Shown here: positions 23,501 through 64,000 of the stretch, in pieces
Position numbering within the stretch: the stretch's first letter is position 1
Layout: every line of letters starts with the position of its first letter
NCBI RefSeq assembly: GCF_021028975.2
Contig: NC_059427.1
Coordinates: 121,582,001-121,646,000, forward strand
DNA from: Sphaerodactylus townsendi
Taxonomy: Eukaryota
DNA length: 64,000 bases
Direction of reading: 5' to 3'
The notes under the pieces: model-generated
What the model was told of the DNA's origin: nothing
The model's input: the letters and a program-made list of their open reading frames with translations, nothing else
Databases searched by the model: none
Program-made: the position numbers and the translations under genes

Positions 23501-24520
23501 CACTTCTTAAGCAGGCTCTGAGTACAATGCATTTCACATCAAATGTGTGGGACACAGAAGAACTATTGGTAAAGGTACACACAGCACTTTCACATATGAC
23601 TCCAGTGTAAGCTACTGAAAGTTTACACAGGCCTACATTTCAGCAGCCTGTTGTGTATGTATGAAGCTCCTCCTGCCCATTTCCTTTTGCTACAACGGAG
23701 GCTCCTACCACAGCCTCAGGTAGCTAGAGAGCTGTATAGAGCTTGTTCTGGCGGGTTTTCCGGGCTGTGTGGCCGTGGTCTGGTGGATTTTGTTCGTAAC
23801 ATTTCACCTGCATCTGTGGCTGGCATCTTCAGAGGTGTATCACAGAGAAACTGTGCGAAACAGACTTTTCTCTGTGATACACCTCTGAAGATGCCAGCCA
23901 CAGATGCAGGCAAAACGTTAGGAACAAAATCCACCAGACCACGGCCACACAGCCCAGAAAACCCACCAGAACCAATTGAATCTGGCCATGAAAGCTTTCG
24001 ACAATACATTGTATAGCTTGCTTGATCTCGCCTTACGTAAACAGATCTACTCCATTACAGCAGCAGAGGCCCTAATACATTCCAACGGACATTTGGCCTC
24101 ACCCTCTTCGGTCTGTCTCCATCAGGAGGCAAAGAAGGAGGAGGGAGCGGAGACGCGTCACGCTTTCATGCCGCGAGTAGGGAGAACGAGGCGGCTGTGC
24201 AGGGCAGGCGCTTCGCCACCGCTCACCTTGTCAGAGCCTAGTTCGGGCCCCTCCTGGCAGCAGAGGCGGCAAAGGAAAGACTTGGGCTCGCGGCAGAGCG
24301 TCTGGCGGGTGCTGACGAAGTAGGTACCTCCCACGTTGAGCCGGACCCACTTCGAGCCTCCGCCGCCTCCCGGCACGGCTTTCTCGGCCGCCGACGGCTC
24401 CGGGCTGCGCGGCGGGCAAGTGGGAGCCCCGGCCGGGCGAGGACTGGGCGGCCCGGTCAGAGGTAGCGGGCTAGGAGTGCGGCCCCGCGGCGGCCCCTCC
24501 CCGGCCGCCAGCTCCGCCAT
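11516..24520 (-). CDS. KCTD2: BTB/POZ domain protein KCTD2 (CUL3 adaptor, KCTD2/5/17 clade), 248 aa
   Basis: Exons 24520-24227, 21433-21325, 20195-20104, 17655-17560, 12449-12324, 11545-11516 (294+109+92+96+126+30=747 nt), all GT-AG and in frame. Motifs [75 protein letters not shown]. Head-to-head with ATP5PD. Confidence 0.96.
11776..11975 (+). mobile_element. tRNA(Ala)-derived SINE (Squam2-like), decayed
   Basis: Head ggggctgtgg...agagcacctgcttgatatgcagaaggtcccagg and tail cagcttcatgtgttc. Confidence 0.6.
12543..13128. mobile_element. CpG-rich non-autonomous DNA transposon (Harbinger-like)
   Basis: Imperfect termini ggccgtttca / tgaaacgcc; CpG-rich body unlike the flanking intron. Confidence 0.45.
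13281..13391. mobile_element. Palindromic MITE
   Basis: tgggccaaaaacagcagtgtgaaaa ... ttttcacaccgctgtttttggccca inverted arms. Confidence 0.6.
14966..15111. mobile_element. Palindromic hAT MITE (URR1-like)
   Basis: Near-perfect hairpin of about 70-bp arms, gtggtggcgaacc...ggttcgccaccac; relatives at 28514-28656 and 52204-52303. Confidence 0.8.
16170..17160 (-). mobile_element. LTR-like insertion in KCTD2 intron 4 (boundaries uncertain)
   Basis: GC-rich, strand-biased block with a minus-strand TATA-like motif (near 16775), AGTAAA (near 16250) and an internal direct repeat of about 55 bp (16812-16920); no clean TSD found. Confidence 0.3.
18284..18587 (+). mobile_element. Sauria SINE (Squam1)
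   Basis: Core ctcagtcttccatctttccaaggtcagtaaaatgactac and RTE-type tail gaaggcaatgccaaa. Confidence 0.7.
18828..19463. mobile_element. Non-autonomous hAT, OposCharlie1/OC1-like, nested in a short CR1 3' fragment
   Basis: 16-bp TIR caggggtccccaaact / agtttggggacccctg; perfect 8-bp TSD atctagtc (18820-18827, 19464-19471). Confidence 0.85.
23745..24008. mobile_element. Penelope-like inverted terminal-repeat relic with hammerhead-ribozyme-like cores
   Basis: Inverted arms of about 105 bp (23745-23972), each with CTGAAGA-stem-(G/A)AAA; tail gaaagctttcgacaataca. Confidence 0.75.
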
Positions 24521-25949: not shown

Positions 25950-28900
25950 ATGGCTGGTCGAAGAGCTACTTTGAAAGCAATAGATTGGATGGCATTTGCT
26001 GAACGAGTGCCTCCCAATCAGAAACCTATGTTCAATGCCCTGAAAACACGCAGTGATGCACTTTCAGCCAAGTGAGTATTTTCTAAGTGTAAGAAGTGCA
26101 CCGTGTGGGAGGAAGACCTTTTTCCTGACAAATGCTTCTTTCTATTTGGGGCAGGAGGTTTCAAGCTTTGCCTTATTTGTGGTATTAATTTTTGCTAGAA
26201 AGAATTATGTTTTGTAGAGATTCCTTTGACTACAGCAGTGTTCAATGGATCTAAATCTCATATTTCGCAAAATATTTAGTTTAAGATGTGGGCTCCATTT
26301 TTTGTTCATGAAGTAGTTGGTTGACTTACTGAAATGGACAGATGTAAATAAGAGTACTGTCTTTTGTTCTCTTTGGCAACTTCATTATACCCTTTCTTTG
26401 GCTTAAACACCTATATGCTCCCCATAGTTGTGATAAAACTGGTCTTAATGAAATATTAATGACCTGTGTAACCAATTTGGTATCTTAAAGCTATGGGGTT
26501 GCTATAAGTCAGGTGTGACTGGATAGCACTTTACACACACATGTTAAAGCTGCATTCTGAAAACTATGATTGAAATACAGCATATTATATGTGCTTTTCC
26601 TTTATAGCTACTGAAGTTCAATTATTTGTTTTACATTTTAACTTAAAGTCCTTTAGCACAGTTGTCCTCTTTTTTTGAGACAGTTAGCTAAATGCAAGCT
26701 CATTTGTTTAGTTAAAATATTTATGTCTTGCTGTTCCTGTTTAGCACAAGGCAGATTACAAACATAACCTCGAAGCCAAGCACTAGTCTTATGCCTTCAC
26801 CTTTCTTTTTTTTTTCTTGGAGCCTCCATTTGGAGACATATTCTTGAGAAGCCTATGACAACTTATGCCTGTTGGAAAAGGGCAGTCTTGTGTACCTTAA
26901 GAAAAAGCCATCAAATGATGCCTTACAAACTACTAGCAGAACACTCTTTCAGATTTTTATTTTACGTCATTTATACCCTGCCTTTTTCCCAATGGGGGCC
27001 CAAAGTGGTTTACATAATTTTATTTTTCTCATGATAACTTTGTGATGTAGCTTAGTCTGAGAGTGTGTGACTGGCTTCAGATTATCTAGCAAACTTCCAA
27101 GACAGAGGGGGGTTTCAGACCTTGGTCACCCAGATCCTAGTTTGACATCCTTATCACCATGCTGGTTGACTTTCCAGAGCAATGTTCAGAAAAACACCGG
27201 AATGTACCACATTTGGTTGTGTGTGAAAAATTAAATCTTAGCTGCTCACTACTTGTTGATTATTTCAAGCAGGTCCTTACAAAGTTCACTCGTGACTTGT
27301 TGAATATCTGGCAGCGTTAGCAACTTTAACTAGCTACTGTTAGGATGTGTTACAAGAATGGCGATTAGGTGCAGAACTAAAAATAGCCTAAAATTTCTAA
27401 CAGTAAAGTGTACTTTTCCTATTAACAGGCTTACTACTTTGCCAGAATCTCCTCCAGCCATAGACTGGGCTTTTTACAAAACTGCAATAGCCAGACCTGG
27501 CATGGTGGATGAATTTGAGCAGAAGGTGAGCCTGTGTTGTAATATTTGATTGCTTTAAATGTTCGAGAATCTCATTGAGGGCTGTTTGTGCATGAATCAA
27601 GTCCAGAATTCACACTGATTGGAATGCTATTTTCCAGCAGGGTTATGTACTTGTGGGAAATGTCCTGTAGCGTTTTGTTTCCGGCCATAGGCACCAGAGG
27701 ATTCTCTTGTGTTAAAATGTTCTGTCCATCCTCAGCACTGTGCCTGTTGTTACGGGAAGGGAATGTAGTTATGCACCCTTTCGTGTTCTTCTAAGACTAG
27801 AGTTATACAACTTTTAAACTTTTTTAAATTAAAAAATTATTAATTTTCCACCCAAAAACAACAAAAAACCCTTTGCAGTGATGCAGTGGTTAAGAGCAGG
27901 TGCGTTCTAATCTGGAGGAACCGGGTTTGATCCCGCACTCTGTTGCTTGACCTGTGGAGGCTTATCTGGGGAATTCAGATTAGCCTGTGCACTCCCACAC
28001 ACATCAGCTGGGTGACCTTGGGCTAGTCACAGCTTTTCAGAGCTCTTTCAGCCCCACCCACCTCACAGGGTGTTTGTTGTGAGGGGGGAAGGGCAAGGAG
28101 ATTGTAAGCCCCTTTGAGTCTTCTACAGGAGAGAAAGGGGGGATATAAATCCAAACTCTTCTTCTTTCAGAATACAAATCTAGAAACAATATAACAAAAC
28201 AAAACAAAATTACATAAAGTTGAAACAGGGTATTGACAAAGGGCTTGGTATTGAACACACTCCCATTTATCTTAATCACAGATAAGAGAGGAATTCATTA
28301 ATGGCATTAGGGATTTAAACAAACACTTTATGTATTTAAGGAACGTCAGGATGATTTGTTACAAGGGCTGGATATGATCTAAATGTAACTTGATTGGTCT
28401 GGGGCTAATGAGCCCCCAGTAGGCTTGTCGACCACAGTATGGTCATCAGCTCAGAACAGCACTGGGGGAGGTGGTCAGCACTGGAGGGGGGTGGCTGCCT
28501 GAGCTGGTGAACTCAGTGGTGGTGAACCTATGGCACTCCAGATGTTCATGCACTACAATTCCCATCAGCCCCTGACCACCAATTGGCCATGCTGTCAGGG
28601 GCTGATGGGAATTGTAGTGCATGAACATCTGGAGTGCCATAGGTTCACCCCCACGGGGCTCGATCATGACTGGGAAGAATTGGTCAGCACGTGGGGAGGG
28701 AGCTGCCTCAGCCTGGTGAGCCCACAGCAGCCTCGCTAGCCCAGATCAGCAGGGGTGAGATGGCATGGGGGGAGAAGGCCACCACAGCTGGAAGTCCCAC
28801 AGCAGAAACACCAGGCCAGGCGCATATGGGGAAGGTGGTCAGTATGGAGGGTGGGGGGGAGATTGCCTTAGCTTAGTTGGTGAGCTCATAGCAGGCTTGT

Positions 28901-32235: not shown

Positions 32236-33589
32236 GATTGGTGAGGCAGGAGTTTCATAGAGGGTGAGCTGATTTTTCCTTGAAATCTCTTGGTATGAGT
32301 CTGGAAAAGAAATACACAGAAGCAGCCAAAAGAACACACCATCCTTATCTTTCCTTTTTAGAGATTTCAAGCCACCTAAAAGTTCATTGCTGATAGTGTA
32401 ATGTGGGAAATGTTACAGATGTCAGAGGGATTCCAAGACACAAAGTAATTTCTCCAGCCAACTATACATTGGTGCTCTGCCCCACAGTGAAGATATGTTT
32501 CCTTCAGGGCAGAGTTTTGATTGTAGACATGCTCATTCTTACTGTGTGGCAGATCCCAGAAGCCCCGCAATTCCTGAGAGCAGGAAAACTCCAGTGTTTT
32601 CCCTGGCTTCAGGGTTTCTGCTACTCTCTATCTTCCCCTGTGCACTCCTTGCAAGGCATTTCCAGGAAACTGATGGGCAGCTTTTTTAAAAACAACAACT
32701 ACTAAAATTAATGTTAACGTGCCATTGTAGCAGGGATGGCACAATAGAATGATTTTAAAAATTAAAGGATTTTTTTTGGGGGAAAGTGGGAATCTAGCAA
32801 GTAACTGGAAATGACCCGGAAGTGGGAGCAGGCAAAATGACTGCAAGTTGCACAGTAGGCAGTGGGATACTTCCTTGTGTGTAAACAGAGAAATGCAAGG
32901 AGACCAATTATGAGCTAAAAGCTTTAGGGAAATGCATAATGGGCCTCCATTTCTAAGTACTGATGTGGAGAGAAAAAAATAAATGTAAAACAAATTCTCT
33001 AACCCTCCTAAATTATATGGTAAAAATGACCCATACCTCAAACAAGCCCAAAGTTAGTTATCACCTGCAAAGTTTCTACTTGCAAAAAAGGAGATAAATA
33101 AAAGGGGCACAATCCACCCAAAGTTAAGTACATATAAGTCTTATTGATTTCATGTCACCTCAGTGGGACATAAAAACTCTGCTTTGGCCAGGATTGTGAC
33201 CTTTTCCCCTCTTCATAATTGACGTTGAGAGACAAGTTAGTCAAGGATGTTTGTTTACTTACCACTTCCATGCTTTAGATCAGAGTGAAATCCAACTTGA
33301 CTTCTAAAGGTTCTTTCCATTTCTTCTCAGGTCTGGTATATAAAAGGAGTTTATTGCCATTAGAAATGTTCAAACGTTGAGCCTCATAGAGTTATATGCA
33401 GTTTTGTTCCAGAACAGTCCTGGTAAAGTATAAAATGAAAAGAAGAGATGTTATCCCAACCACTGCAGTCAGTACTATCTACTTTCCACCTCCTATTGGT
33501 GGCAAAATATGAACTAAAAATAATTGGCCTCTTTTCACAGACTAACCACCCTTGTTCCATCATTATGGAAAAGTAACCTGCTTTTGCCC

Positions 33590-36426: not shown

Positions 36427-39400
36427 TTATTGTCTCCACTTTATAACAATAAATGTTAAAAAACAGATGGATAAAACCAAACGGGTATAATTTAGTCCCT
36501 TCTGCACACACTGTACAGTTTTATCCTGGAGGACTGGTTCATCCTGGTGTCCTTCTAAAACCAGATGTTTTCTGATCTGCTGCAGTTCCACACTCAGTCG
36601 TTTTAGAAGCACCAAGCTGTTTGCATTATCTGTTTCTGGCAAGGTACCTTCATTGATCTGCTTGTTCTCCATGGATGTCTCATCTGTCACATTTCCTGCT
36701 GGAATGAGGAAAATAAGGGCATTCATTATTTCTGATCTCCATACAGTGGGTTGGCTTCAGTGCAGTGTTCCATAGCTGAAAATATTGGCTGTGGAACACA
36801 ACTTTTGCTGTGCTTCATAGCAATCTGAAATACCCCCTGGAATTCTGTTTCTGAAGAAGGTGGGTCCCCAAAGAACAGGATTTACCTGGAATAATCACAG
36901 GGTCCACTGTTTTCTTTCTCCAGAACCTGCTCATACATTTCCTGTCCTTGAAGAAAAGGAAAGTTGGTTTCTTCTCATTGAGATACATCATCAGGAAGTT
37001 CTCCAGGATTCCAAGCACCATAAACATGAATATGCCAGTGAAATACATCACTACACAGATGAAAAAAACAGTGTGGCAAAAAATGGGCTTCACAGGCAGT
37101 TTTTTTAATGACCTCAGAGCCAAGCTGTTTATTCAAGGAGGATCATCATCATCAATAATTTAATTTTAGCATAAAAAGTGACCAACAGTGGCAGAAATTC
37201 ACAAATACATGTCATAACCACTGAAAACAAATTATGAAGTAGAATTGCTTGATTTTGTGTGTGGCTGGGGTAAGTAGAGTAGAAAGTAGGTTGAGCACCA
37301 TAAAATTGAAACACCTCAAAAAGGGTGATGGAAAGAGCTTTTGCTAGTGGTAAATTAAGGTGTCTTAAATCTAACTAATGGAAATAGGGTGTGGAATAGT
37401 TCAGCAGAATCTCAAGGAGCCATATGGAGACCATACCAAGTTGCAGCTGGGATCAATTACCACCTGTAAATTGTGGGTCATGCTGAGACATTAACACCTA
37501 CAGTATGTGAGGAAACTGAAGTCAAGTCTGGTCATTCTTGTATTTGTTAATTGACTATGTTTGAAGTATGTTTGAAGTACTTGATACTTAATTGAGTGTG
37601 TTTGATGCTACACTTCACAGTGTGGAGGAGGGGCTTAAGAAGATCTTTTCCATTCTCTTAACTCATGTAGGAATCACTGGGTGGACCCAGTGTTTGCTGG
37701 CCCTTTACTCTTAGCTCAACTGAACAATGAATTGAGAGCTGTCACAGCTAAGATATCTGCAAGACCCTGATGCAAAGAAAGCTCTGCTATTAATTCATAA
37801 GATGACCTTAGGCAAGTTATTCAACCTGAGTCCCCCATAATACAGGCCTATCTTACTGGGACATTGTAAGTACAGCAAGATAATATACATGAAGAAGTCC
37901 TTTGACTGTTTTAGGACGCTACCTAAATGCTTAATTTCAGTTTGACATAGTGTGAACTAATCTCTGGGACCTTCACAGATGGTATGACAGGCCCTAAATG
38001 CCACATGAAAACAAATCCACAGAAGCAAGGCATTTACCTATAACAGGTGGGTCATCTGATGTAGCTGGCAGCATTTCATTAAGGATCAATGACAGGACAG
38101 AAGTTTCCAGGATCAGTGTGACTTTGAAGGCAATCATATCTCCAGGAGAAACAACTGTAAAAGAAATAGCCGTATCTAGCAAAAAGAGAGTGAAGGTTGG
38201 TACGATCAGAACTAGCACGTGAAAAATCGACCTCCTTTTCATTGAAATCTGTCAAAAAAAGAGAGCAAAGATTATTACAGAGCATAATCTCTTTGGTCAT
38301 TCCTAACAAGAGCCTAAATTCTCAGCACACTTACAGTGCCAGCAAAGTTGTTACACCTTTCTAAGATGACTGAAGTCAATGGGTATAACCCTGATTAGGA
38401 TGGCACAATGGAATGCAAGGTCATAGTACTCTTGTTCCTAAAATTTTCCTTAATTCTCAGTTTAGCATGTTGTGGGGAAATCATGGAGCCACTGCCAAGC
38501 CTTAAGTAGGAACCGTAGGTAGAATTGACAAATCCAATGTGAAATTCCTGGAGATAGGGGCAGTGCTTAGACAGGGCAGTGTTGGTGGTGGGGCAGTGGG
38601 AGCTCTGCAAAAATGTGATTAGGCTTGCTAAGTAGATGTTGGAAAATTTCTGAAGATTTGGGGGTGGAACTGGGGATGATGCAACATGGGGAAGAGAGGG
38701 AACTCAGTGGAATATAAGGCCATGGAATCTGCCCACCAAAGCAGACATTTTCTCCACAGGAACCTTATCTCTGAAATCTGGAGATCAGTTGTAATTACAT
38801 CCAGATCAAAGCCCAGCCCTTCAGCTGTTCCTTTTCTTCAGAGGTCTTTCCCTCAGCAATCTTAAATTTAAAACGTATATTTCCTGCCTTGTATCACTCA
38901 ACCTGAAAAAACTCTGAAAACTGCCTCCAGGGTTTTCAGTCCCATAAGATACATCAGCCAACAGCAATCCTGTCCCTCTCTAAACTCCCACCTGGTCTCT
39001 GGCCTTTATTGTCTGTATATGTGAATCTTTATGGTCTACTGTAAGAGAAATGAAAGTCCCAGAGTATCCACTATGTCTAGGCACTTTAGGACTTCCATTT
39101 CTCCTAGGTTTTATGATTTCTCCAGATTTAAGAGATTCCATGAGAAGTCTAAGCCCCAACCATATCAGTAGAGCTTTTGGGAAGAGTCTAAAGTGGCTTC
39201 CCAGCACTGGGGTGATGCTCTGCCTGAGGTCTGTGGCTGTGAATAGATTTTCTCTTTTTTTTCTAACAGAGCTGCCCTTCTCTATGACATGGTAACCCAG
39301 CACGCAAAAAAAGTCAACAAGCGAAGTTCCCTACCACTGCAGCAGCTGATATTAGAAAAAGATACACTGTGAAATTATAACCTGTCATGTAGCTGCAGAA

Positions 39401-42400
39401 AGCACACAAACCCTGTCGGAAAAACAAAGAGAGAACGATGGCCATTTTATCTGCAAACGTTTTTTTCCAGCCACTTTTTATGTTGTTGACAGGACTTAGC
39501 TAGGGTTGCCAGGTCCCCCAGGCCACTGAAGGGGGACGAGGAGATAGATTTGCCCGATCCAGGCTGGGAAAAAACTCTCCAGGAGATTCGGGAGATGGAG
39601 CTTGGGAAAGGTAGGTACCTCAATGCCATTTAGGTGGCACAATGCCATAAACCCCCCAAAGACATAGATTTTCTTCAGAGGAGCGGATCTCTGTACTCTG
39701 GAGATGAGTTATACTTCTGAGCATCAGGCTCTTTAACACCATCAGCAGCACCTGGTATTCCAAAGGGAGATGGCTGAAAGATGAGGCTCATCTGCTTTTA
39801 CTAAGGAGCTTCTTTCAAGCCCAATCTACCCATTGAAGGAAAATGAAGTAAAGAGATTCTGAGATGATAAAGTGAGCTGTACTGCTTCAGCATGTAGGTG
39901 GGGAAATCTGTATTTTTAATGTTCTTTTCTGGAACAACATCCTGCACAATAAAAAAAATAGAACATTAGGGAGAAAGGTTCCAACCTAGATCTTCATATG
40001 CTGTGCCAATTTCCCATTTACAGTAGAACATTTGTAAATAGTGTAATCCCTCGTCTGCAGTCTGAAGCAGTGCAGTTCATTCTGCCACCTCATTACCACC
40101 CTTATCTTCTACATGTCTATATGTGCTTTGGACCCACTAAATAACAGTGTTCAGGTAGTATCTCTTCCAGTCCAGATTTCAATAATAATATTACCAGACT
40201 CAATGCATATTTACTTGGAAATAAATTTCAATGTGTTACACAGCTTTTCCTCCTATTTAAATACATACAGAATAACAGTCCCAAAGGTGTTGCCTGCTTT
40301 GATTGACATTGGGAGAAAGATGGTTAGAACTGACATAAATGAATAAATATGCCACTTAAACAATTATTTAGGATAAAAATGCACAACTGTAACATAATTA
40401 ACATAGGTTTTTAGAATGAGATGATCCCTTTTTTCTTTACTTCACAAAGTAGTGTGATTACCCTTTATTTAATAAATGGTGATACAAGTCTGCAAAGATA
40501 ACACAACTCAAATTTATACAGGGATAGTTTCTGTGTTATTCCTATATTTCCAGCATAAGAAAGCATTTGTAATGAATACCTCATATGTGACTGTACTGAA
40601 GTTCATCTTATAAGGAATTGTTTCCTCCACGATGCTCAGTTTTTCAAATTTCCATTCACCCTTTATGAGGTAATTCTCACGACTATCTTGGTTTGTCTTT
40701 TTGGAACTTTTAATGTTCTTCATTAATATTTGCTTATCTAAAATCAACAGAGGACACAAGTTTGCCACTTTAAGGACAAATGCCTATCATGTGCATCCTG
40801 AATGTGTAAAATGTTTGTAGAAAGTAAAATTCATAGAGATGTATTCTAGTCACAATTCTTTTTCAGTAGCTGCTCAAATTGCATGGTGTGAGATCATAGT
40901 AAGACCATAAGAACATAAGAAAGAGCCTGCTGGATCAGACCAGAGTCCATCTAGTCCAGCACTCTGCTACTCGCAGTGGCCCACCAGATGCCTTTGGGAG
41001 CTCACATGCAAGATGTGAAAGCAATGGCCTTCTGCTGCTGCTGCTCCTGAGCACCTGGTCTGCTAAGGCATTTGCAATCTCAGATCAAGGAGGATCAAGA
41101 TTGGTAGCCATAGATCAGGTGTCAGCAACCTTTAACACCCAAAGAGCCATTTGGACCCGTTTTCCATGGAAAAGAAAACACTTGGAGCCGCACTGATTTA
41201 TAGTGGCTAATAACCCATGGCAGCAACTAATTTTAGAGGTTCCTAACTCTTGAGACACTAGGGTATGTGAATGAAGGAGCAAAAATGTACAAGGAACAGC
41301 AGTCATATGGAGAATGGAAGAAAGCATGTAGGTGTTGAAGAAAGTGGATAGACCATGAAGGATGCACACAAGATGCGGGGGCTGCAGACGTAAGTGAGAA
41401 AGGGATGAAATCTGAAGATGAACATAAATCAAATGGCGTACATGATAGAGGGAATATTCAAAAATATTTTAGGTGGATGGGGAGAAGAAAATCCTAGCTG
41501 AAAAAATATGACCATGTTTAGCTGGGTTACCTGAATGCATCGAAGACATCAAAGTTAAATTGCATTTTTGTTCATCGAAAGGAAATGCATGGACATCCAG
41601 ATTGCAAGTTGAGGTGAGTCGATATACTTGGAATGCACAAACAGTACCATTGTATGACAAGTCAACATAGGGGCTGGATGTGAATTTGTCTTCATCAGCC
41701 CTAAAGACATGGGATTTTAATCAGGCAGGGGTTGTATTTTGCACATATTAGACAATCTAGGACTTTGGCATCTATGTGAACTTTCTCCATATCTATGCAA
41801 TCATCAGCTGATTCTGCACAACCAAAATAAGATGTCCTAGGGTCGTCTTAAAAAAAAGTATCCTCATTTTTTGTCTGGAGAGGACAAAAATGAAGCGTCT
41901 GAGGAGAGAGCAGTTTTTCCCCCCACCCCAAACTGCAAGCTCTCACTTTTGTTTTCTTCGGTTAGCCATTTTGTGAGACTTGGATCCTCCATGCTGCCCG
42001 CCATTTGATGAAGTTGCCTTAGGACATTTTCTCTGTAGGCATCTTGGCTGATCTTTTCAGTGAATACAGTTCAGGAATTGACTCTTTTTTTCCTGCTGAT
42101 TCCAGCAATATATAGTTTTCAATTAAAAAAAACTTTGATGAAGTGTCTTTGAAGCCATGATATATGAGAGTGACTATGATTCTCATATCGTGTCATTGTG
42201 GCTTTGAAGACACCTCATCAAAAATATTTTAAAATCCTGAAAACTACATATTGCTGGAATCAACAGGAAAGGCTGAGTTGATGCATATACTTTATTCACT
42301 GAAATGATGCCCAGCTGAAATGCCTGCAGAGCAAGGGACCCAGGGCAACTTCACCAAATCGTGGGCGGCATGGAGGATTCAAATCTCACAAAATGGCCAG

Positions 42401-43344
42401 CGGGACAAAACAACCGTGAGAGCTTGCAGTTTGAGAAGGAGAAATATCACCTATCCTGAGCTCTGCCCAGCAAGCAGGAGATGACTTGTAGCTGACTTGG
42501 GGAAAAAGATACCTAGTTTAGCATCCTCAAAATACACTGGCTTGAGCAGGAAAAAAAACAATCTGAGGGCTTCTTCCTCCCCAAGACCCTGTTTTTTCCC
42601 ATCTTCAGGCTGTTTTATTTGTGCTGTGCCGAATGGGTCATTAATAAAGGATATATATACATAGTAAGAGACTTAATAAATTATGTTTCTGGTAGGAGAA
42701 CTGTTAATTTAACCAAGTCCTTGTGGATTCTTTAAGTTTTGATTTTTAACAATTTTCATGGAATATGCCTGCTGTTACAGAACATGTCTGAGACTACTCA
42801 GTATCAAAAGTGCACTTTATTCTGATGCTGAAATGCTACATCACTTAAATGTCTAAAAGTCTAACTATATTGTACAAGTTGACAATGATAAAATAAGAAT
42901 TTGAGTAGTAAAATGAATTTGAGATTCCCCTTAAACTGAAATTTCACTTCAATTTGAAATTTTGGTTCACATCAACTACTTGGATGCGGGGAGTTGCCAT
43001 GAACTGAGTCTGAAAATAATGAGAAAATGGAAAGAAAGCCACCTTACCGTTCATCTATGTAGACGTCAGGCATCCAGAAAAGGTTTACAGGAAGGCTGAT
43101 TCTGGTAATATTACAGAAATCTGAGGGATTCCAGGAAACAAACTCATTGTTCCAAATCTAGTGGAGGTGAAAATTAGGTAAATCATTAGCTTGAGAAGTT
43201 TAGTTTGAGTTCTCTTGGAGGATGGATCTGATTGTCATATACAGAGGAAGAAAAAAGCGTGCCTTACCAGATTGAGCCAAAAATAGAATGTGACCACTTG
43301 CAATTTTTCATTCTGGAAGGATGAATGAAAATAAGAATATATCT

Positions 43345-43387
<43 letters not shown>

Positions 43388-44061
43388 ACTAAATAGGGAC
43401 AAAGTAGATGAAATTATTCAAAAATTATTTATCCTCCCTTGGGTGGCAAAGTGGCACTGCTAGACTTTGAGAGCTGCAAGTGTGGCTGATGAACAAGTAA
43501 ATGAGCATTCTGCATCCTGACAGCTTACATATTTAATAGAGTTCCCACCACTAGCAACTATTTTGCCCTTTTGTTGTTCTCTAATATTTAAGCTGGTTCC
43601 ATTATAAACAAGAGAGTGACATGTTTCTCTTACTACAGAAAGGATGGAAACCAGGGTGAACTCCAGACCAACTTCCAAAGGTTCTTTCCAGTTCCTCTTG
43701 GGTATGGTGTATGAGAAAAGTTCCTTATTAGCAGACAGGTTCAGGTGCTTAGCCACATCATAATAACTACAGATCTCCTCTGGTGTGGTTTCTGAGTGGA
43801 AAGAAAACAATAGCAAGATTCAGTACCGTTTCATAAAAAGCAAAATCACATACCTCTTCTTCACCTGCTTCTTCACCTACTTTGCTGTTCACAATCATAT
43901 TGAAAGCTAGTGGATGGGGAAAATTGCTGGTCTTCACTCCACTGTGAATCTACGATCATTGTTGATTTGGTTGCTGTGTGGAAGGATAAGAAGTTGCTTC
44001 AACCTGTCTTACCTGGCACACAGAAATAGAATAGAAAAGTGATTACAGCAGCTCTCCACAT
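36427..44061 (-). CDS. Orphan pentameric ligand-gated ion channel subunit, 5-HT3 receptor/ZAC-family-like, copy A (444 aa)
   Basis: Exons 44061-44013, 43791-43634, 43312-43268, 43157-43048, 41700-41531, 40737-40580, 38248-38038, 37050-36886, 36695-36427 (49,158,45,110,170,158,211,165,269 = 1335 nt), all GT-AG, open frame. Signal peptide, WMPD, Cys-loop C-NLDVHAFPFDEQK-C, GEW, M1-M3, MA helix and M4. Confidence 0.92.
40907..41116 (-). mobile_element. CR1 3' fragment in intron 5, shared with copy B (54530-54840)
   Basis: Same insertion site (gagatcatagtaag) in both paralogues, so it predates the duplication or a conversion event. Confidence 0.85.
43349..43383. repeat. (AG)n microsatellite in intron 2; paralogous longer tract at 58087-58139
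   Basis: Direct reading. Confidence 0.95.
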
Positions 44062-44923: not shown

Positions 44924-45326
44924 CAGAGGTGTAGCTAGGCCAGAGTGCGCCTGGGGCACACACTGGCTTTTTCACCCCCCTGCTCCCCCACCTCTCCGCG
45001 GCAGCCCCTCCCAAAGCACCCCATTCCACTTACTTTTAGGAAAGGAGCAGGCCGAAGAAGCCTTCCTGCGTTGCCTGGGCCTGGTGGGAACTACATTTCC
45101 CAGGAGCCCATGGTAAACGTAGTTCCCACCAGGCCCAGGCAACGCAGGCAGGCTTCTTCGCTGGGATGTTCCATTCCTAAAAGTAAGTGGGAGGGCGGTG
45201 CGCTGTGGGAGGGCGGGGGGGCACCGCGGAAGGGGGGCCATGGGGATTTTTCCATCCCCCACGTGACCAGAATCGGTGCCCCCGGTGCATTGCGCACCCC
45301 CCTGTCCCCTGGTGGCTTCGCCACTG
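44924..45326. mobile_element. Non-autonomous hAT upstream of copy A only
   Basis: Termini cagaggtgtagc / gcttcgccactg; TSD gatacctg/gatacctt; internal inverted repeat; empty site at about 59661 in copy B. Confidence 0.8.
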
Positions 45327-45842: not shown

Positions 45843-46010
45843 NNNNNNNNNNNNNNNNNNNNNNNNNNNNNNNNNNNNNNNNNNNNNNNNNNNNNNNNNN
45901 NNNNNNNNNNNNNNNNNNNNNNNNNNNNNNNNNNNNNNNNNNNNNNNNNNNNNNNNNNNNNNNNNNNNNNNNNNNNNNNNNNNNNNNNNNNNNNNNNNNN
46001 NNNNNNNNNN
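45843..46010. other. Assembly gap (168 N)
   Basis: Run of N. Confidence 1.
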
Positions 46011-49053: not shown

Positions 49054-52000
49054 TTATTGTCTCCACTTTATAACAATAAATGTTAAAAAACAGATGGATA
49101 AAACCAAACGGGTATAATTTAGTCCCTTCTGCACAAAGAATACAGTTTTATCCTCGAGGATTGGTTCATCCTGGTGTCCTTCTAAAACCAGATGTTTTCT
49201 GATCTGCTGCAGTTCCACACTCAGTTGTTTCAGAAGCACCAAGCTGTTTGCATTATCTGTTTCTGGCAAAATACCTTCATTGACCTTTTTGTTCTCCATG
49301 GATGTCTCATCTGTCACATTTCCTGCTGTATGGAAGAAAATAAGGGCATTCATTTTTTTCTGACCTGCATGCAGTGGGTTGGCTTCAGTGCAGTGTTCCC
49401 ATAGCTGAAGGTATTGTCTGTGGAACACAACTTTTGCTGTCCCTCATGGCAGTCTGAAATGCCCTCTGAAATTCTGTATCTGAAGAAGGTGGGTCTCTTA
49501 AGAACAGGATTTCAAGGGATATTTCATGCCGATGCGGAAGTGGGAACTGACAGAATCATGCTCCGCAGGTTCTTGCGCCCACATAAATGCTTTGCTGGAT
49601 TTAACTCATTGTTTCCCATACTGAAAACTGTATCAAAATTTTACCTGGAATAATCACAGGGTCCACTGTTTTCTTTCTCCAGAACCTGCTCATACATTTC
49701 CTGTCCTTGAAGAAAAGAAGGTTTGGTTTCGTCTCATTGAGATACATCATCAGGAAGTTCTCCAGGATTCCAAGCACCATAAACATGAATATGCCAGTGA
49801 AATACATCACTATACAGAAGAAAAAAACAGTGTGGCAAAAAATGGGCTTCACAGGCAGTTTTTTTAATGACCTCAGAGCCAAGCTGTTTATTCAAGGAGG
49901 ATCATCACTATCATCATCAATAATTTAATTTTAGCATCAAAAGTGACTAACGGTGGCAGAAATACACAAATACATGTCATAACCACTGAAAACAAATTAT
50001 GAAGTAGAATTGCTTGGTTTAGTGTGTGGCTGGGGTAAGTTGAGTAGAAAGTAGGTTGAGCACCATAAAATTGAAACACCTCAAAAAGGGTGATAGAAAG
50101 AGCCTTTGCTAGTGGCAATTTAAGGTGTCTTAAATCTAACTAATGGAAATAGGGTGTGGAATAGTTAAGCAGACTCTCATGGAGCATTATGGAGACATAT
50201 CAGGTTGCAGCTTGAATCAATTAGCACCTGTAAATTGTGGGTCATGCTGAGACATTAACACCTACAGTATGTGAGGAAACTGAAGTCAAGTCTGGTCATT
50301 CTTGTATTTGTTAATTGACTATGTTTGAAGTATGTTTGAAGTACTTGATACTTAATTGAGTATGTTTGATGCTACACTTCACAGTAAGGAGGAGGGGCTT
50401 AAGAAGATCTTTGCCATTCTCTTAACTCATGTAGGAATCACTGGGTGGACCAAATGTTTGCTGGCCCCTTACTCTTAGCTCAACTGAACAATGAATTGAG
50501 AGCTGTCACAGCTCAGATATCTGCAAGACCCTGATGCAAAGAAAGCTCTGCCATTAATTCATAAGATGACCTTAGGCAAGTTATTCAACCTGAGTCCCCT
50601 ATAATACAGGCCTATCTTACTGGGACATTGTAAGTACAGCAAGATAATATACATGAAGAAGTCCTTTGACTGTTTTAAGACACTACATAAATGCTTAATT
50701 TCAGTTTGACTTAGAGTGTGAATGGATCTCTGGGACCTTCCCAAATGATATGACAGGCCCTAAATGCCACATGAAAACAAATCCATAGAAGTAAGGCATT
50801 TACCTATAACTGGTGGGTCATCTGATGTTGCTGGCAGCATTTCATTAAGGATCAATGACAGGACAGAGATTTCCAGGATCAGTGTGACTTTGAAGGCAAT
50901 CATCTCTCCCGCAGACACAACTGCAAAAGAAATAGCCATATCCAGCAAAAAGAGAGTGAGGGTTGGTACGATCAGAACTAGCACGTGAAAAATCGACCTC
51001 CTTTTCATTGAAATCTGTCAAAAAAAAGAGAGCAAAGATTATTACAGAGCATTAATCTTTTTGGTCATTCCTAACAAGAGCCTAAATTCTTAGCACTCTT
51101 ACAGTGTCAGCAAAGTTGTTACACCTTTCTAAGATGACTAAAGTCAATCAGTATAGCCAGTGGCGGGATCCAAAAATTTTAGTAACAGGTTCCCATGGGG
51201 GTGGGATTCAAACTGTGGCGTAGCGCCAATGGGGCTGGGCGGGGCATTCCGGGGGCGTGGCCGGGCATTCCGGGGGCGGGGCATTCCTGGGCGGGGCTGT
51301 GGCAAGGATGCAGCCGCTGCACCGGTCCTTGGGCGGGAAACTAATGCACGCAGGGGCAGGCTGCCACGCACACCGGTGCACCTCCTGCTAGACTGCTTCA
51401 AGTTCTGCGCGCTGCTGCTGAGAGGAGGGGCGTAACTAAGGCAAAAATCACATGGCAAAATCACCCATTAGTAACCCCCTCTCGGCACACACAAATAATT
51501 AGTAACCTACTCTCGGGAACCTGTGAGAACCTGCTGGATCCCACCTCTAAGTATAGCTCTGATTAGAATGGCATTTAATGGAATGCAAGGCCATAGTGAT
51601 CTTTTTCCTGACATTTTCCCTAATTCTCATATTGTGGGGAAATAATGGAGCCACTGCCAAGCCTTAGGTGGGAACAATAGGTAGGGCTGACAAATCCAGT
51701 GTGAAATTCCTGGAGATAGGGGCAGTGCTTAGACAGGGCAGTGTTGGTGGTGGGGCAGTGGGAGCTCTGCAAAAATGTGATTAGGCTTGCTAAGTAGATG
51801 TTGGAAAATTTCTGAAGATTTGGGGGTGGAACTGGGGATGATGGAACTTGGGGAAGAGAGGAAACTCGGTAGACTATCAGGCCAAGGAATCTGCCCACCA
51901 AAGCAGCCATTTTCTCCACAGGAACTGATCTCTGAAATCTGGAGATCAGTTGTAATTACATCCAGATCAAAGCCCAGCCCTTCAGCTGTCCCTTTTCTTA

Positions 52001-55000
52001 AGAGGTCTTTCCCTCAGCAATCTTAAATTTAAAACGTATATTTCCTGCCTGGTATCACTCAACCTGAAAAAGCTCTGAAAACTGCCTCCAGGGTTTTCAG
52101 TCCCATAAGATACATCAGCCAACAGCAATCCTGTCCCTCTCTAAACTTCCACCTGGTCTCTGGCCTTTATTGTCTGTATATGTGAATCTTTATGGTCTAC
52201 TGCACAGGTGTCAAACTCGCGGCCCTCCATATGTTATGGACTACAGTTCCCATCATCCCCTGCCAGTATGATGCTGGCAGGGGATGATGGGAACTGTAGT
52301 CCACAAACCCCCACCCCCACCCCCAACATAGATTTTCTTCAGGGGAGCAGATCTCTGTACTCTGGAGATGGGTTATAATTCTGGAGGATCCTCAGAGCTC
52401 ACCAGGAAGTTAGCATTTTTAGTCTAAAATGAAAGATTCTGTTTTAACCAACACCATGTATAAAATACTAACAGTATTCACTCAGACACATGCTTATTGA
52501 TGAACATACTTATTTCCAAGGAAGTACGTTTAGGATTATAGCCTTAATTATACTGCACATCATACTTAGTTAAACCCAAGAAATAACACCATCCTCATTA
52601 TTTAGTGTGGCACCCAAATAGATTTGAGATCTGAGGAGATGCCTTCATCAATCACAGCTCCCACAGCATCTTCAACAGCCAGCACCACCAAAAGTTCAGA
52701 AATCTGGCAGTCATTGATGCTACGTGACCAGTGCAGCAGCAGTAGCGGCAAGAGCACCTAGAGGTTTGGGAAGTGGACTCTGAAGACCATCCGGCCCCAT
52801 ATTTCCAATGACAGCTGCTCAGGAAAAACAGAATCAGGAGGAGCTGCAGCATTTGAGCATCAGCGTAGGCTTTTTAACACCATCAGCAGCTCCAAAGGGA
52901 GATGAGGCTCATCTGCCTTTAGTAAGGAGCTTCTTTCAAGCCCAATCTACTCATGCAGAAGAATGAAGCAAATGGGATTCTGAAATGATAAAATGAGCTG
53001 TACTATTTCAGAATGCATGTGGGGAAATCCGTATTTTTAATATTATTGTTTGGAAAAAACTTCCTGCACAATAAAAATTAGAACGTTAGGGAGAAAGGTT
53101 CTAGCCTAGACCTTCATATGCTGTGCCAATTTCCCATTTACAGTAGAACATTTGTTAACAGTGTAATTGATGTGAATCTTAGTTGTGATAATTATATCAC
53201 GCTTCTTATAAATGCAGAGTTTGCACAATAGAGTGGCAGAGGCAATTGCTTACTGAAAATAAAGTTTACTGACTATAAAAGAAGGGAAGGGTAAACTTGG
53301 ATACAAAACAAGAAAATATCTTTCTAACTGGCTAGCTCCATTAGCTAGCTTGTGCCTGGCTATCACATGGCTAATAAGCTACTAGAGAGCAGGTGCAGAA
53401 AGTAACAAAGGATATATACCCATTGCTTACATACAGATCTGCATGTAGACTTGGCTGACCAATGGGGGTCAATTACCAGGTCACTAACTTCTGACCTCAC
53501 TAACTAATTAGCATGCACGATATTAACTTCTTCATTATTGGATTGGGTGAATGGCACTTGCAACAGTAATCCCTCGCCTGCTTCTGTTCATTCTGCCACC
53601 TTGGTATTCTGCCCCTCTCATTGCCACCTTGATCTTCCACATGTCTAGAACGTGTTTGAGACCCGCTAGATAACAGTGTTCAGGTAGTATCTCTTCAAGT
53701 CCACTGAAACACTTCAAAAGGCTTATCCATTTCAGGACAATATTGTCTACCTATTGAGTGATTTTATTATTGTGAATAACTTTGAGAGCTATTGTGGCTA
53801 AAAAGTGGTATGCGAGTATTATAAACCTACCAGCCATCACCTATTTCAATAATAATATAACCAGACTCAATGCATGTTTACTTAGAGGTCAATATGTATA
53901 GAATAACAGTCCCAAAGGTGTTGCCTGCTTTGATTGACATTGGGAGAAAGATGGTTAGAAATGACATAAATGAATAAATTTGCCACTTAAACAATTATTT
54001 AGGATAAAAATGCACATATAATTTAGCATAGGTTTTTAGAATGAGATGATCATTTTTTCTTCAGAAAGTAGTATGTTTAGAAAAAACCCTATATTTAATA
54101 AATGGTGATACAAATCTGCAAAGATAACACAACTCAAATTTATGCAGAGATAGTTTCTATGTTATTCCCATATTTCCAACATAAGCAAGCAAGCATTTGT
54201 AATGAATACCTCATATACAACTGTACTGTAGTTATCATCGTAAGGGACTATTTCCTCCGTGATCCTCAATTTTTCAAATTTCCATTCACCCTTTATGAGG
54301 TAATTCTCACGACTATCTTGGTTTGTCTTTTTGGAGCTTTTCATGTTCTTCATTAACATTTGCTTATCTAGAATCAACAGAGGACACAAGTTTGCTACTT
54401 TGGGGACAAATGACTATCATGTGCATCATGGACATGCAAAATGTTTGTAGAAAGTAAAATTCATAGAGATGTATTCTGGTCACAATTCTTTTTCAGTAGC
54501 CGCTCAAATTGCATGGTGTGAGATCATAGTAAGAACATAAGAACATAAGAAAGAGCCTGCTGGATCAGACCAGAGTCCATCTAGTCCAGCACTCTGCTAC
54601 TCGCAGTGGCCCACCAGATGCCTTGGGGAGCTCACATGCAGGATGTGAAAGCAATGGCCTTCTGCTGCTGCTGCTGCTCCCAAGCACCTGGTCTGCTAAG
54701 GCATTTGCAATCTCAGATCAAGGAGGATCAAGATTGGTAGCCAGAGATCGACATAGATCTATGGTAGACATAGATCCTCCCTAAATCTGTCCAAGCTCCC
54801 TTTAAAGCTATACAGGTTAGCGGTCAATTGTATCCAGGTTAGTGGCCATTTGTAAAATTTGTATCAATAGTAAACTGATTTATAGTGGTTAATAACCTGT
54901 GGCAGCAACTAATTTTGGAGGGACACTAGGGTATGTAGGTGAAAGAGCAAAAATGTACAAGGAACAGCAGTAATATGGAGAATGGAGGAAAGCGTGTAGT

Positions 55001-58000
55001 TGCTGAAGGAAAAAGGAAAGTGGATAGAGGATGAAGGATGCACACAGGATCATGCAGAGGCTGCAGACATAGGTGAGAAAGGGATGGAATTTAGAGATGA
55101 ACATAAATCAAATGGGGTACATGATAGAGGCAATATTCGAAAATATTTTAGGTGGATGGGGAGAAGAAAATCCTAGCTGAAAAATTTCACCATGCTTAGC
55201 TGGGTTCAAAGGCGTAGCAAGGGGGAGAAGCGCCCAGTGACCAATGTGTCCTCCGCCCTGTCCCACCCCGCCAGGCCCCCGCCCCGGAACGCCCCCACCA
55301 TGCCCTTGCCACACTCCCACATGGGCGAACACCAAGTGCGTTGCGCCCCCCCCTGCCCCACCTCCCACTTGAAGCTACGCCTCTGGCTGGGTTACCTGAA
55401 TGCAAACTAGATGTGAAAGTTAAATTGCATTTTTGTTCATCGAAAGGAAATGCATGGACATCCAGGTTGCAAGTTGAGGTGAGTCGATATATTTGGTGTA
55501 CAAAAACAGAACCATCGTATGACAATTCAACATAGGGGCTGGATGTGAATTTGTCTTCATCAGCCCTAAAGACATGGGATTATAATCAGGCAGGGGTTGT
55601 ATTTTGCACATATTAGGCAATCTAGGACTTTGGCATCTATGTGAGCATTCTCCATATCTATACAATCATCGGCTGATTCCGCATAACCAAAATAAGATGT
55701 CCTGGGGAACCTGTCTCCTCATTTTTTGTCTGGAGAGGACAAAAACGAAGCGTCTGAGGAGAGAGCAGTTTCCCCCCCCCAGCCCAAACTGCAAGCTCTC
55801 ACTTTCATTTTCTTCAGTTAGCCATTTTGTGAGACTTGGATCCTCCATGCCGCCTGCCATTTGATGAAGTTGCCTTAGGACATTTTCTCTGTAGGCATCT
55901 TGGCTGGGCATCTTTTCAGTGAATAAAGTACAGGAATTGACTCTTCTTTTCCTGCTGATTCCAGCAATATATAGTCTTCAATTTTTTTCAAAAAAACCTG
56001 AATCTCCCACCCTTCAGCTTCAGTAACAAAAGTGTACTTTATTCGGATACTGAAATGAAACATCACTTAAATGTCTAACCATATTGTACACATTAACAAT
56101 GACAAAATAAGAATTTGAGTGGTAAAATAAATTTGAGATTCACCTTGAACTGAAATTTCACTTCAATTTGAATTTTTTTTTAACACCAACTACTTGGATG
56201 CAGGGAATTGCCATGAAAATGTTTGTATTGAAATTCAGTACTTGAATCTGAGCTGTGAATTTACTCAGGTTTTATCCCCACTTGAAATTTGCACGCAGAT
56301 CCAAACCTGTTTGTTGTGAAACCGTGTCCTCTTCATCAGAGTTTCTCCCTCCCCACTGCAGCGAGCACACAGCAGACACACCCCGGTTGCAGAACTCTTA
56401 GCAATCCCCACTACCAGGCGAGCTTGCTTCGCCATTCTCCCCTGATTGGCTGGCATGCCTTGATGGGGTGGGACCTTTTCCCACTGTGGAAACGTACATT
56501 GTAGGGGCGTGATAAAAAAACCAGCATGTAAAAGTTTAATGTTTAACTGTTTAACTGTATAAACAGTTAATCATTACCTGTGTAAACCATTAACAATTCA
56601 AAGTTACTCGTTTGACTATTTAACATTTGCATACCCTTCACAAAAGCGGAAATGAAACCAAGGAAAGGCTGCGCACGCATCTCAGCGCTGATTGGTTGCC
56701 CGAATTACATGTCACACTCCAGGGTGGGAAACGAGTCAGGGTTTCAACTCTCATCCCTCCCCTCGGATCAGCTCTGAACCGTGTTAATGGGGTCTATGCC
56801 ACTTGCAACTAGGTCCTGCCGAAACGCGGATTAACTGGGAGAACGAGCGCCAGAAACGGAATCTGCCACCCAAGCAATGGGGAGGTCGTCCCTCAAACCT
56901 GGTTAGTTTGTGTTCTGAAACCTGGCTAAGACGCTAGTGGGGATTCGACCTCAGATTGATTCCTATTTTGTAGAAGAAGAACTGAAGAGGAGATAGCAAT
57001 TTGAGTAGATCCTTTCCAATTTATCCTTAGCTCAGCTGACATTTAAACTGAGGTCCAAGTTCAGCATGCAATCTGTTGCCTGCAAAACATGTGGCCACCA
57101 ACCAGAATACAGACCACCAGTCATGTACTATGATGACCTGCCAAGTACTTCATATTTCCCACCCCAGGGTTACCAGTCCTATGAAGGCAATAAAAAGAAG
57201 GTGAGCCAAGAAATGGCCTGAGGGACTGCCGTTGTCTTCATGGAGAGCAAAATATTCAGTCCTACTCTGTCCTAGTTCTTTGATATCTGATTTCTTCTAC
57301 TAAGGGGCACCCCATACTTCTATGATACATCTTACAAATCTGAATATGTGTGCTTTTGTGTCAGTAGTATCAATGGGGCAGAATACTGATTTTTCTTGTA
57401 AAAAGGTTTGGAATAGAAGAGAAAGAAAATTCAAGCTACCTTTTAAGGTTGATATTTGGATTGCATTTCAGGCAAGTTAGCTCTAATGTTTTTTAACTAA
57501 CCACCACATACTGGTAGATCAATTTTTCTTTTTCCAAGCATATGTCAGGTGCTCCAAAAAAAAGGTCAACCCTTGGAGCAAAATTCACAGGAACTTCCAA
57601 TTTATCTCCTGTATTTATACTAATCTCATGACCCAGCATTCTTAAACCTCTGCCTATGATTTTAGGGTTTTCAGTGTCTGGACATGAGAATGGTAATTTG
57701 AACTTACTTTATATGGTTGCAGTAGGGAAAGCAATCACATGAACAGAGTCTGAAAATAATGAGAAAATGGAAAGAAAGCCACCTTACCGTTCATCTATGT
57801 AGACGTCAGGCATCCAGAAAAGGTTTACAGGAAGGCTGATGCTGGTAATATTACAGAAATCTGAGGGATTCCAGGAAACAAACTCATTGTTCCAGATCTA
57901 GTGGAGGTGAAAATTAGGTAAATCAATTAGCTTGAGTTTAGTTTGAGTTCTCTTGGAGGATGGATCTGATTGTCATAAAAAGAGGAAGAAAAAAGCATGC

Positions 58001-58083
58001 CTTACCAGATTGAGCCAAAAATAGAATGTGACCACTTGCAATTTTTCATTCTGGAAGGATGAATGAAAATATGAATATATCTT

Positions 58084-58141
<58 letters not shown>

Positions 58142-58802
58142 TTGCACTAAATAGGGACAAAGTAGATGAAATTATTCAAAAACTATTTACCCTCCCTTGG
58201 GTGGAAAAGTGGCACTGCTAGACTTTGAGAGCTGCAAGTGTGGCTGATGAACAAGTAAATGAGCGTTCTGCATCCTGACAGCTTACATATCTAATAGAGT
58301 TCCCACCACTAGCAACTATTTTGCCCTTTTGTTGTTCTCTAATATTTAAGCTAGTTCCATTATAAACAAGAGAGTGACATGTTTCTCTTACTACAGAAAG
58401 GATGGAAACCAGGGTGAACTCCAGACCAACTTCCAAAGGTTCTTTCCAGTTCCTCTTGGGTATGGTGTATGAGAAAAGTTCCTTATTAGCAGACAGGTTC
58501 AGATGCTTAGCCACATCATAATATCTACAGATCTCCTCTGGTGTGATTTCTGAGTGAAAGGAGAACAATAGCAAGATTCAGTACCGTTTCATAAAAAGCA
58601 AAATCACATACCTCATTCTTCTTCACCTGCTTAGCTGTTCACAATCATATTGAAAGCTAGTGGAAAATTGCTGGTCTTCACTCCTCGGTGAATCTATGAT
58701 CATTCTTGATTTGGTTGCTGTGTGGAAGGATAAGAAGTTGCTTCAACCTGTCTTACCTGACACAGAAAAGATTAGAAAAATAATTGCAGCAGCTCTCCAC
58801 AT
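49054..58802 (-). CDS. Orphan pentameric ligand-gated ion channel subunit, 5-HT3 receptor/ZAC-family-like, copy B (443 aa)
   Basis: Exons 58802-58757, 58549-58392, 58050-58006, 57897-57788, 55565-55396, 54367-54210, 51014-50804, 49809-49645, 49322-49054 (46,158,45,110,170,158,211,165,269 = 1332 nt), GT-AG, open frame. About 40 amino-acid differences from copy A outside the signal peptide. Confidence 0.92.
51158..51549. mobile_element. Non-autonomous hAT in copy B intron 6
   Basis: Termini cagtggcgggatcc / ggatcccacctcta; perfect TSD agtatagc; empty site near 38381 in copy A. Confidence 0.85.
53168..53565 (-). mobile_element. Solo LTR, same family as 48067-48483, opposite orientation
   Basis: TG...CA termini; 5-bp TSD gtaat; empty site near 40042 in copy A. 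Confidence 0.85.
55207..55385. mobile_element. hAT MITE beside the copy B exon 5 donor
   Basis: Termini caaaggcgtagc / gctacgcctctg; perfect TSD gctgggtt. Confidence 0.85.
56268..56950. mobile_element. Harbinger-like non-autonomous element in copy B intron 4
   Basis: Imperfect TIR ggttttatccccact / agtggggattcgacc flanked by a 3-bp tca repeat. Confidence 0.55.
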
Positions 58803-62800: not shown

Positions 62801-63290
62801 CTTTGGTCAGGGGGACGATAATATATTCCTAATGTTAAACTATGCTTCACCCCTGGTATTGATATCCACAGTGCTTCTGTAGAGGAATCAGCTACCCTTG
62901 CATTGTCTATTTTATGTGACACTATGCTCTCTTTGATGTAGAGGGCCACCCCACCCCCAATACGCCCTGTCCTATCCTTCCTGTAGAGCCTGTAACCTGG
63001 GATAACAGCATCCCACTGGTTCTCCTCATTCCACCATGTCTCTGTGATGCCCACTATATCAATGTCCTCCTTCAAAACTCTGTACTCCAGCTCCCCCATT
63101 TTAGGTCGAATGCTTCTACTATTAGCATAAAGACACTTGTATACTCTGTCTCTGTCCCTAACCTGGGATTTATGTGTTTTGCCCTCTAGCCTTTTGTAGA
63201 CACTATCACTTATCACATTGCTATGCTCCTCGCGATTACACCTAGCATTGGATTTGTGTTTGGTCAAACCATAAAACTTGAAACAACATC
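59836..63290 (-). mobile_element. CR1 LINE, near-complete but inactivated ORF2 (APE endonuclease + RT) with 3' UTR
   Basis: Endonuclease motifs LYANSRS, GITETWW, MGDFNYP, SDH; RT motifs YRPVSLTS, DFQKAFDKV, GVPQGSVLGP, FADD; C-terminus EYCVQFWSPH. Frameshift near 62230, deletion near 60480, solo-LTR insertion, (TTCTTATG)n tail. Confidence 0.95.
60557..61010 (-). mobile_element. Young CpG-rich solo LTR nested in the CR1 RT domain
   Basis: Inverted termini tgtagt / actaca; 5-bp TSD gcccc (60552-60556, 61011-61015); AATAAA on minus near 60690; CR1 sequence rejoins across it. Confidence 0.88.
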
Positions 63291-64000
63291 CTGGTAGATG
63301 AATAAGTGTCACAGAGTTCTGACATCCAAGGCCAGTGAGTGTCTTATATGTAAGAAACTTCCTTTCCTGACATGTCCCCTGGAAAGTGTTGTGCTCTGCT
63401 AATAACAACTTACTTGCGTCCTTGGCCAAAGAAGCATTCAGCTGTCCTCAACTAGGGCCAGGTTCTTTTCAAGCTGGCCCTGGCCTGGCGGAATGCTTTC
63501 TCAAATGAGACCAGGGCTGTGCAGAACCTATCCCGGTTCTGCAGTGCCTGCAAGATGAAGCTTTTCAACCACACCTATAGTTGAGTGCAGCAATGGGAGT
63601 GATAATATCTTGCTGACCTCCCTTCTCCCTTTCCCTCCTCTTTTCTTATAAATTGGGGAGGGGGTGTCATCCCACCCTTAGACATGTTTTAGTGCCATAG
63701 GCTAATAATTTTATAGATTCTGAAATTGATATTTGAGACAAGGGAATTAAATCACTTTGGCTGGTTAGAATAACTGGCAGGAAGATTCTCTGGAGAGAGG
63801 GAATGAGTATTAGTCCTAGTTAATCTTTAAAAGATAGCCATGCAATTTAAGCCCCAAGCTAGATGTTAAACCTACATTTTAATATAGGAGACATCCTGAT
63901 ACTAGCATTCCTTTGGTCAGATTATTAGTTGAGATCCAACCTCTATCTAGAATTGCTAACTGATAAATTAAATATCTTTCCCACTACTACTACTTTTTCT

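Follow-up and report, generated by a model that had tools for sequence, protein, structure and literature searches.

The window, by which we mean the whole 64,000-nucleotide stretch of Sphaerodactylus townsendi DNA analyzed here, carries two 5-HT3-like subunit genes as tandem neighbors on the minus strand, which we call copy A and copy B. Both were located by tblastn and are already annotated as genes; each has an open frame over 9 exons with all introns GT-AG, and exon 1 of each copy was positioned by motif. The features referred to below are as follows:

36427..44061, minus strand: copy A, whole 5-HT3-like subunit gene, 9 exons, 445 amino acids
44061-44013, 43791-43634, 43312-43268, 43157-43048, 41700-41531, 40737-40580, 38248-38038, 37050-36886, 36698-36427, minus strand: exons 1 to 9 of copy A
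41531..41700, minus strand: copy A exon 5, with loop E (7 amino acid changes from copy B), the Cys-loop (no change) and loop B (3 changes and the serine codon switch)
41541..41543, minus strand: Ser174 codon TCG of copy A, in loop B, at the position of W183 of 5-HT3A
40580..40737, minus strand: copy A exon 6, with loops F and C (loop C with 7 amino acid changes from copy B)
49054..58802, minus strand: copy B, whole paralog of copy A, 9 exons, 444 amino acids
58802-58757, 58549-58392, 58050-58006, 57897-57788, 55565-55396, 54367-54210, 51014-50804, 49809-49645, 49325-49054, minus strand: exons 1 to 9 of copy B
55396..55565, minus strand: copy B exon 5
55406..55408, minus strand: serine codon AGT of copy B at the equivalent position, which recurs in organism B and in a second sample
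54210..54367, minus strand: copy B exon 6

The copies are identical at 94.5% of coding positions (from codon 17 onward) and 90% of protein positions, in agreement with the first-pass annotation of this DNA, which had put them at about 90% or more. In all, 54 codons differ, and the residue is changed at 40 of 429 codons; the introns are mismatched at 262 of 4366 aligned columns (approximately 6%). An S. townsendi record named 5-HT3A-like has exactly the exon-5 peptide found in copy A. PF02931 and PF02932, the ligand-binding domain with the Cys-loop and the four-helix membrane domain, were found by Pfam on a copy-A-type record, a domain content that puts this predicted protein in the Cys-loop pentameric ligand-gated ion channel family.

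Elsewhere in the window, a TRIM-type gene has its first coding exon, which encodes RING and B-box domains, downstream of the receptor cluster (3022-3693, minus strand). Upstream of copy B are LINE remains whose endonuclease and reverse transcriptase are read in two different frames (60830-63447, minus strand). The 168-N assembly gap between copies A and B (45843-46010) may hide further copies. Palindromic MITE-like elements occur at 13282-13390, 14968-15109, 23745-23972, 28516-28654, 41929-42433, and 45006-45213. A GC-rich insertion, a repeat at 55206-55385, is present in copy B alone, roughly 10 bases from the start of intron 5, and is shared with organism B (see below). Of a broken third family member (32379..33454, minus strand), two exons remain in part, with in-frame stops in the first of them; nearest to it is a sister squamate subfamily with Pro at the loop-B tryptophan position.

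Our reading of loop B bears out the peptides reported earlier, CNLTLMSSMH in copy A (41564-41535, minus strand) and CNLTFTSSLH in copy B (55429-55400, minus strand); the positions given for them had been shifted by four bases and ran to the exon end. The second Ser of each peptide aligns on the Trp of solved 5-HT3A, and its codons, TCG in A and AGT in B, are mismatched at all three bases, both as had been described. The codon difference is nevertheless less singular than was stated at the time: among the 54 differing codons there are 2 with no base in common, the second being Q418F, and runs of four mismatches number 2 in the coding alignment versus 0 in the introns. In a second sample with the same species label (run X3), one contig is identical to copy B across the serine codon, and one A-type contig has 7 differences, the number that separates A from B there. 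Since both codons recur in this second sample, TCG and AGT are real and not an assembly error. Q418F lies beside C419F in the last exon, ahead of the final membrane helix (36513-36508 and 49140-49135, minus strand).

In a quick tree of 76 proteins, picked from roughly 225, copies A and B fall in a 19-row squamate clade within a 32-row tetrapod clade, itself within a 54-row clade (support 100) whose proteins come from fish, amphibians, reptiles, and birds. The other 22 rows include HTR3A, HTR3B, and HTR3E; the single rows named HTR3B and HTR3E sit in the clade opposite A and B with support 100. An AU test on 22 rows, in which two Trp-bearing HTR3A-type rows represented HTR3A, rejected the grouping of A and B with these rows (p-AU 3e-53), as well as that of 11 tetrapod rows with them (p-AU 6e-51). 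These trees place copies A and B in an old sister family and not among HTR3A orthologs. No mammal was named among the 62 and 97 matches of two word-limited searches, which also missed lizard HTR3A. No chain named ZAC appeared among the best 60 of 91 profile matches or among the fold matches listed, and the tree holds no ZAC row; the cluster names returned by an atlas search were solely 5-HT3A-like and nicotinic. We found no paper describing the 54-row clade in the literature searched, most subscription journals being outside its reach. Passages of a 2026 preprint report that HTR3 genes are enriched for positive selection among one-to-one orthologs, and these passages make no mention of the clade (10.64898/2026.04.08.717291). 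Of additional note, a Phrynocephalus record (P0026) has an RF-1 domain, named as a mitoribosomal protein, fused to the receptor, probably by a gene-model merge with the neighboring gene; that RF-1 gene lies in the same human region as ZACN.

Passages of PMC9977066 describe the loop-B Trp as conserved in chordate 5-HT3A homologs. In the 54-row clade, Trp occupies this position in 3 rows, all caecilian. Of 37 squamate records examined, which include isoforms and records from the same species, 29 have loop B: 19 with Ser, 5 with Pro, 4 with Thr, 1 with Ala, and none with Trp. Trp is likewise absent from the one crocodile record (Thr) and the four bird-type records (Phe), and the two frog records have Ala and Phe. 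Since no squamate, crocodile, or bird record of the clade has Trp, it was absent long before copies A and B split. Three of 4 caecilians have Trp, which may have been either kept or regained there. The nearest lizard records in the tree, from Heteronotia, Eublepharis, and Hemicordylus, have Ser, and the Leu-Met-Ser-Ser of copy A is the same as in Heteronotia. These tip states, from which we also read the polarity of changes at codon 174, suggest that Ser was present in the gecko ancestor, and we infer that it may already have been present in the ancestor of the squamate subfamily to which A and B belong.

The first-pass annotation had considered two separate arrivals at Ser, one per copy, with the Trp of a serotonin receptor as the starting point. 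The three caecilian members with Trp would fit such an origin, and TCG is one base from TGG. The copies are only about 6% apart in their introns, however, while Heteronotia, Eublepharis, and Hemicordylus already have Ser and every other squamate, crocodile, and bird record lacks Trp; with HTR3A orthology rejected for both copies as well, we regard two independent Trp-to-Ser changes as extremely improbable. The nearness of TCG to TGG is a coincidence, since A and B belong to a clade with Trp in 3 of 54 rows and in 0 of 29 squamate records. A Ser-to-Trp change in A or B would not be a revertant.

How TCG and AGT came to differ can be followed in relatives. Seven sequencing runs were compared, from organisms coded A to F (letters distinct from those of the copies); their codons were taken from contig difference tables by a listing rule inferred from the rows, every listed row having its contig at least 31 letters from the contig end, and the findings hold among the rows listed. 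Run X10 leaves the exon uncovered. The A-type loop B is present in organisms B, C, and D. Copy B of the window has AGT-TTG after Phe-Thr. In organism B, copy B has AGT-ATG, that is, the same Ser codon with Met for Leu at the next codon (record 9, about 50 letters from the ends), and in organism E (record 20), a B-type loop reads Phe-Thr-Ser followed by GCT (Ala) and ATG (Met). In the B-type contig of organism C, T is visible at the third base alone of the Ser codon. With GCT-ATG in organism E, AGT-ATG in organism B, and AGT-TTG in the window, the run of four mismatched bases formed in two or more steps. The T that ends AGT is common to the Ala codon GCT of organism E, and the site tolerates small residues.

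Switches between the TCN and AGY islands of serine codons are the same kind of change, ordinary and already described. Passages of PMC7954308 give serine island jumps as the commonest inferred multi-base changes, and the commonest three-base change on short branches; both mechanisms, stepwise and simultaneous change, are argued in PMC7954308 and PMC6872785. The difference here is that the site is not an invariant Ser, so stepwise routes are open. We consider it rather probable that in the B lineage TCN gave way to AGT by way of Ala or Thr, small residues that are tolerated at this site. The earlier suggestion of passage through other residues gains in part from GCT on the B-type loop of organism E and from Thr, Ala, and Pro in other squamates, although the intermediate is seen in a side lineage and not on the path to AGT. 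For the codon by itself, one instantaneous double mutation from TC to AG along the B lineage, Ser being retained throughout, perhaps copied from an inverted-repeat template in the exon, with the Ala of organism E as a side branch, is somewhat unlikely. It would agree with the prominence of serine island jumps noted above (PMC7954308), and the introns hold 24 two- or three-mismatch runs among 230 runs. As for the template, the loop-B segment of copy B matches the reverse complement of the start of the Cys-loop at 12 of 14 bases, which in a post hoc shuffle test was equaled in 2 of 400 shuffles on the inverted strand and 8 of 400 on either; such a template would give an Arg codon, however, and not AGT. 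The changes it would explain also differ in age, Phe-Thr being found in organism E, AGT in organism B, and Leu solely in the window species. A single template switch as sole cause was rejected, the loop-B changes having arisen at separate times across these organisms.

The changes between A and B are focused on the binding loops. The loop limits follow those of 5-HT3A, mapped via a sturgeon sequence and set after the clustering was noticed; within them, the residue is changed at 18 of 81 codons, and outside them at 5 of the remaining 136 extracellular codons (P = 4e-5). By loop, the changes number 7 in E (of 17 codons), 3 in B, 7 in C, 1 in F, and none in A or D. Across the six loops, non-synonymous sites differ at a rate of 0.136, roughly double the 0.060 of the introns (P = 6e-5) and above the 0.076 of all synonymous sites (P = 0.026); in the rest of the protein the non-synonymous rate is 0.029. 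Among eight contigs of relatives, the residue is altered in 36 of 40 listed exon-5 codon differences, which are not independent of one another. A loop-E contig of organism D (run X7, record 20, on 55444-55622, depth 3.7) has 19 differences, with 9 of 10 changed codons non-synonymous. The pocket is thus likely to be under diversifying selection, and such a concentration of amino acid change in the predicted pocket of paralogs is what would be expected of a chemosensory channel family that works like the chemotactile receptors discussed below.

The synonymous rate inside the loops (46 sites) is 0.135, equal to the non-synonymous 0.136 and partly due to multi-base codons. Passages of PMC7954308 indicate that multi-base mutations can inflate selection tests of this kind. 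The equal rates also fit an older divergence that escaped conversion. In organism C there is one loop-E contig (depth 77.7) and two loop-B contigs (39.2 and 42.4), and in organism E the reverse; this species-specific collapse of contigs, read from depth, suggests gene conversion, which would move loops between copies. If conversion homogenized most of both genes, the loops might retain older neutral divergence with no selection at all. The equal loop rates, the opposite collapse patterns of organisms C and E, and the reach of B-type loop residues to the most distant organism covered would all accord with this idea. The Cys-loop, however, lies between loops E and B and has no amino acid change, and the flanking introns 4 and 5 differ by just 0.068 and 0.073. 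Since the divergence is confined to the binding loops, selection is needed to keep it there, and we consider an account free of selection very unlikely.

It could also be supposed that A and B are accessory subunits like 5-HT3E, which would assemble with a true 5-HT3A and contribute the complementary face only, leaving loop B relaxed. The Trp of loop D is kept in both copies, and marmoset 5-HT3E also lacks the loop-B Trp (Phe). Yet it is the complementary loop E that varies most, at 7 of 17 codons, the loops change faster than the introns, an excess that relaxation by itself would not produce, and A and B fall outside the 5-HT3E clade; an accessory role is accordingly quite unlikely. Diversifying selection on the pocket remains our preferred reading of the loops.

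Against the 11 ligand-binding residues of 5-HT3A listed in section 18 of PMC9977066, copy A keeps 2 (loop D Trp and loop A Glu) and copy B keeps 4 (the same two with loop B Phe and loop C Tyr), and A and B differ from each other at 5 of the 11 positions. The aromatic cage and the acidic residues that make up the serotonin site are not intact in either predicted protein. According to a passage of PMC2599823, 5-HT3A with W183A still responds, its EC50 moving from 0.24 to 39.8 μM, an approximately 170-fold lower potency of serotonin. Since loss of Trp alone lowers potency without abolishing the response, it is the pocket as a whole that argues for another ligand, and the weak serotonin response that is likely for A and B would not follow from the loss of Trp alone. 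A ligand other than serotonin is likely for both copies. Counting against this reading, Trp of loop D and Glu of loop A are kept, and loops A and D are unchanged between copies.

In the pore, the acidic residue at -1' and Leu at 9' are kept, in the prime numbering of M2, and so a cation channel is predicted. The M2 0' residue, encoded by codon 268 in exon 7 of copy A, is Met in Hemicordylus as well as in the gecko records; 5-HT3A has Arg there and most relatives have Lys. M2 10' is Glu or Gln in squamates and crocodile. The predicted model of the relative from Eublepharis (mean pLDDT 75) matches 5-HT3A best, with TM up to 0.72. In an RNA run of a relative there are 7 reads, 4 of which span the splice junction of exons 5 and 6 and carry the A-type codon. 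The reading we choose as likely is that of an orphan cation channel whose pocket is diversifying, and the most likely driver of the diversification would be an external ligand.

Taking these together, we propose, with a probability of roughly 0.68, that copies A and B are intact tandem paralogs of an old 5-HT3-like family, separate from HTR3A and with no loop-B Trp in the squamate records checked, in which TCG and AGT likely arose stepwise in a pocket that diversifying selection has probably shaped for some ligand other than serotonin. Of this, the gene structure, the clade placement, the distribution of residues, and the way the changes cluster in loops E, B, and C are observed. In the mechanism we envisage, Ser would have been present already in the ancestor of the squamate subfamily, and loops would be swapped between copies by gene conversion. 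Each product would form a pentameric cation channel gated by ligand binding at the subunit interfaces, and the molecules to which A and B respond would differ, most likely being external or variable in nature.

This scheme can be set beside known systems. 5-HT3A is the best sequence and fold match among solved structures and shares the Cys-loop, loop A Glu, loop D Trp, and acidic -1' residue, although A and B are not its orthologs, have 24-30% identity over the fold, keep the 2 or 4 of 11 binding residues given above, and have Met for Arg at M2 0'. 5-HT3C/D/E are arranged in tandem, as A and B are. They too are 5-HT3-family paralogs without the loop-B Trp (Phe in the 5-HT3E record), but they form a separate clade, and A and B carry a small residue there, not an aromatic one. 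ZAC is described in passages of PMC10513076 as a vertebrate Cys-loop cation channel that is not gated by classical transmitters, a type to which A and B may also belong. Our working analogy is with the cephalopod chemotactile receptors, an expanded set of descendants of neurotransmitter channels whose pocket sites are under diversifying selection, according to passages of PMC11526382; these have a nicotinic origin, demonstrated ligands, and sensory expression, whereas the gecko pair is known from sequence.

By this analogy, A and B could belong to an overlooked family of ionotropic chemoreceptors derived from the 5-HT3 lineage in fish, amphibians, reptiles, and birds, whose tandem copies would diversify and swap pocket loops for environmental, dietary, or microbial molecules, a vertebrate parallel to the octopus chemotactile receptors. 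We hold this to be unlikely as it stands. Many reptile, amphibian, and fish records named "5-HT3A-like" form a separate clade without the serotonin cage and should therefore not be read as serotonin receptors. The gene neighborhood and family are more interesting than the Ser codon itself: if the pocket-focused diversification holds, the A/B pair, 90% identical and different at 5 of 11 pocket positions, would be well suited to a search for what activates this orphan family of vertebrate channels.
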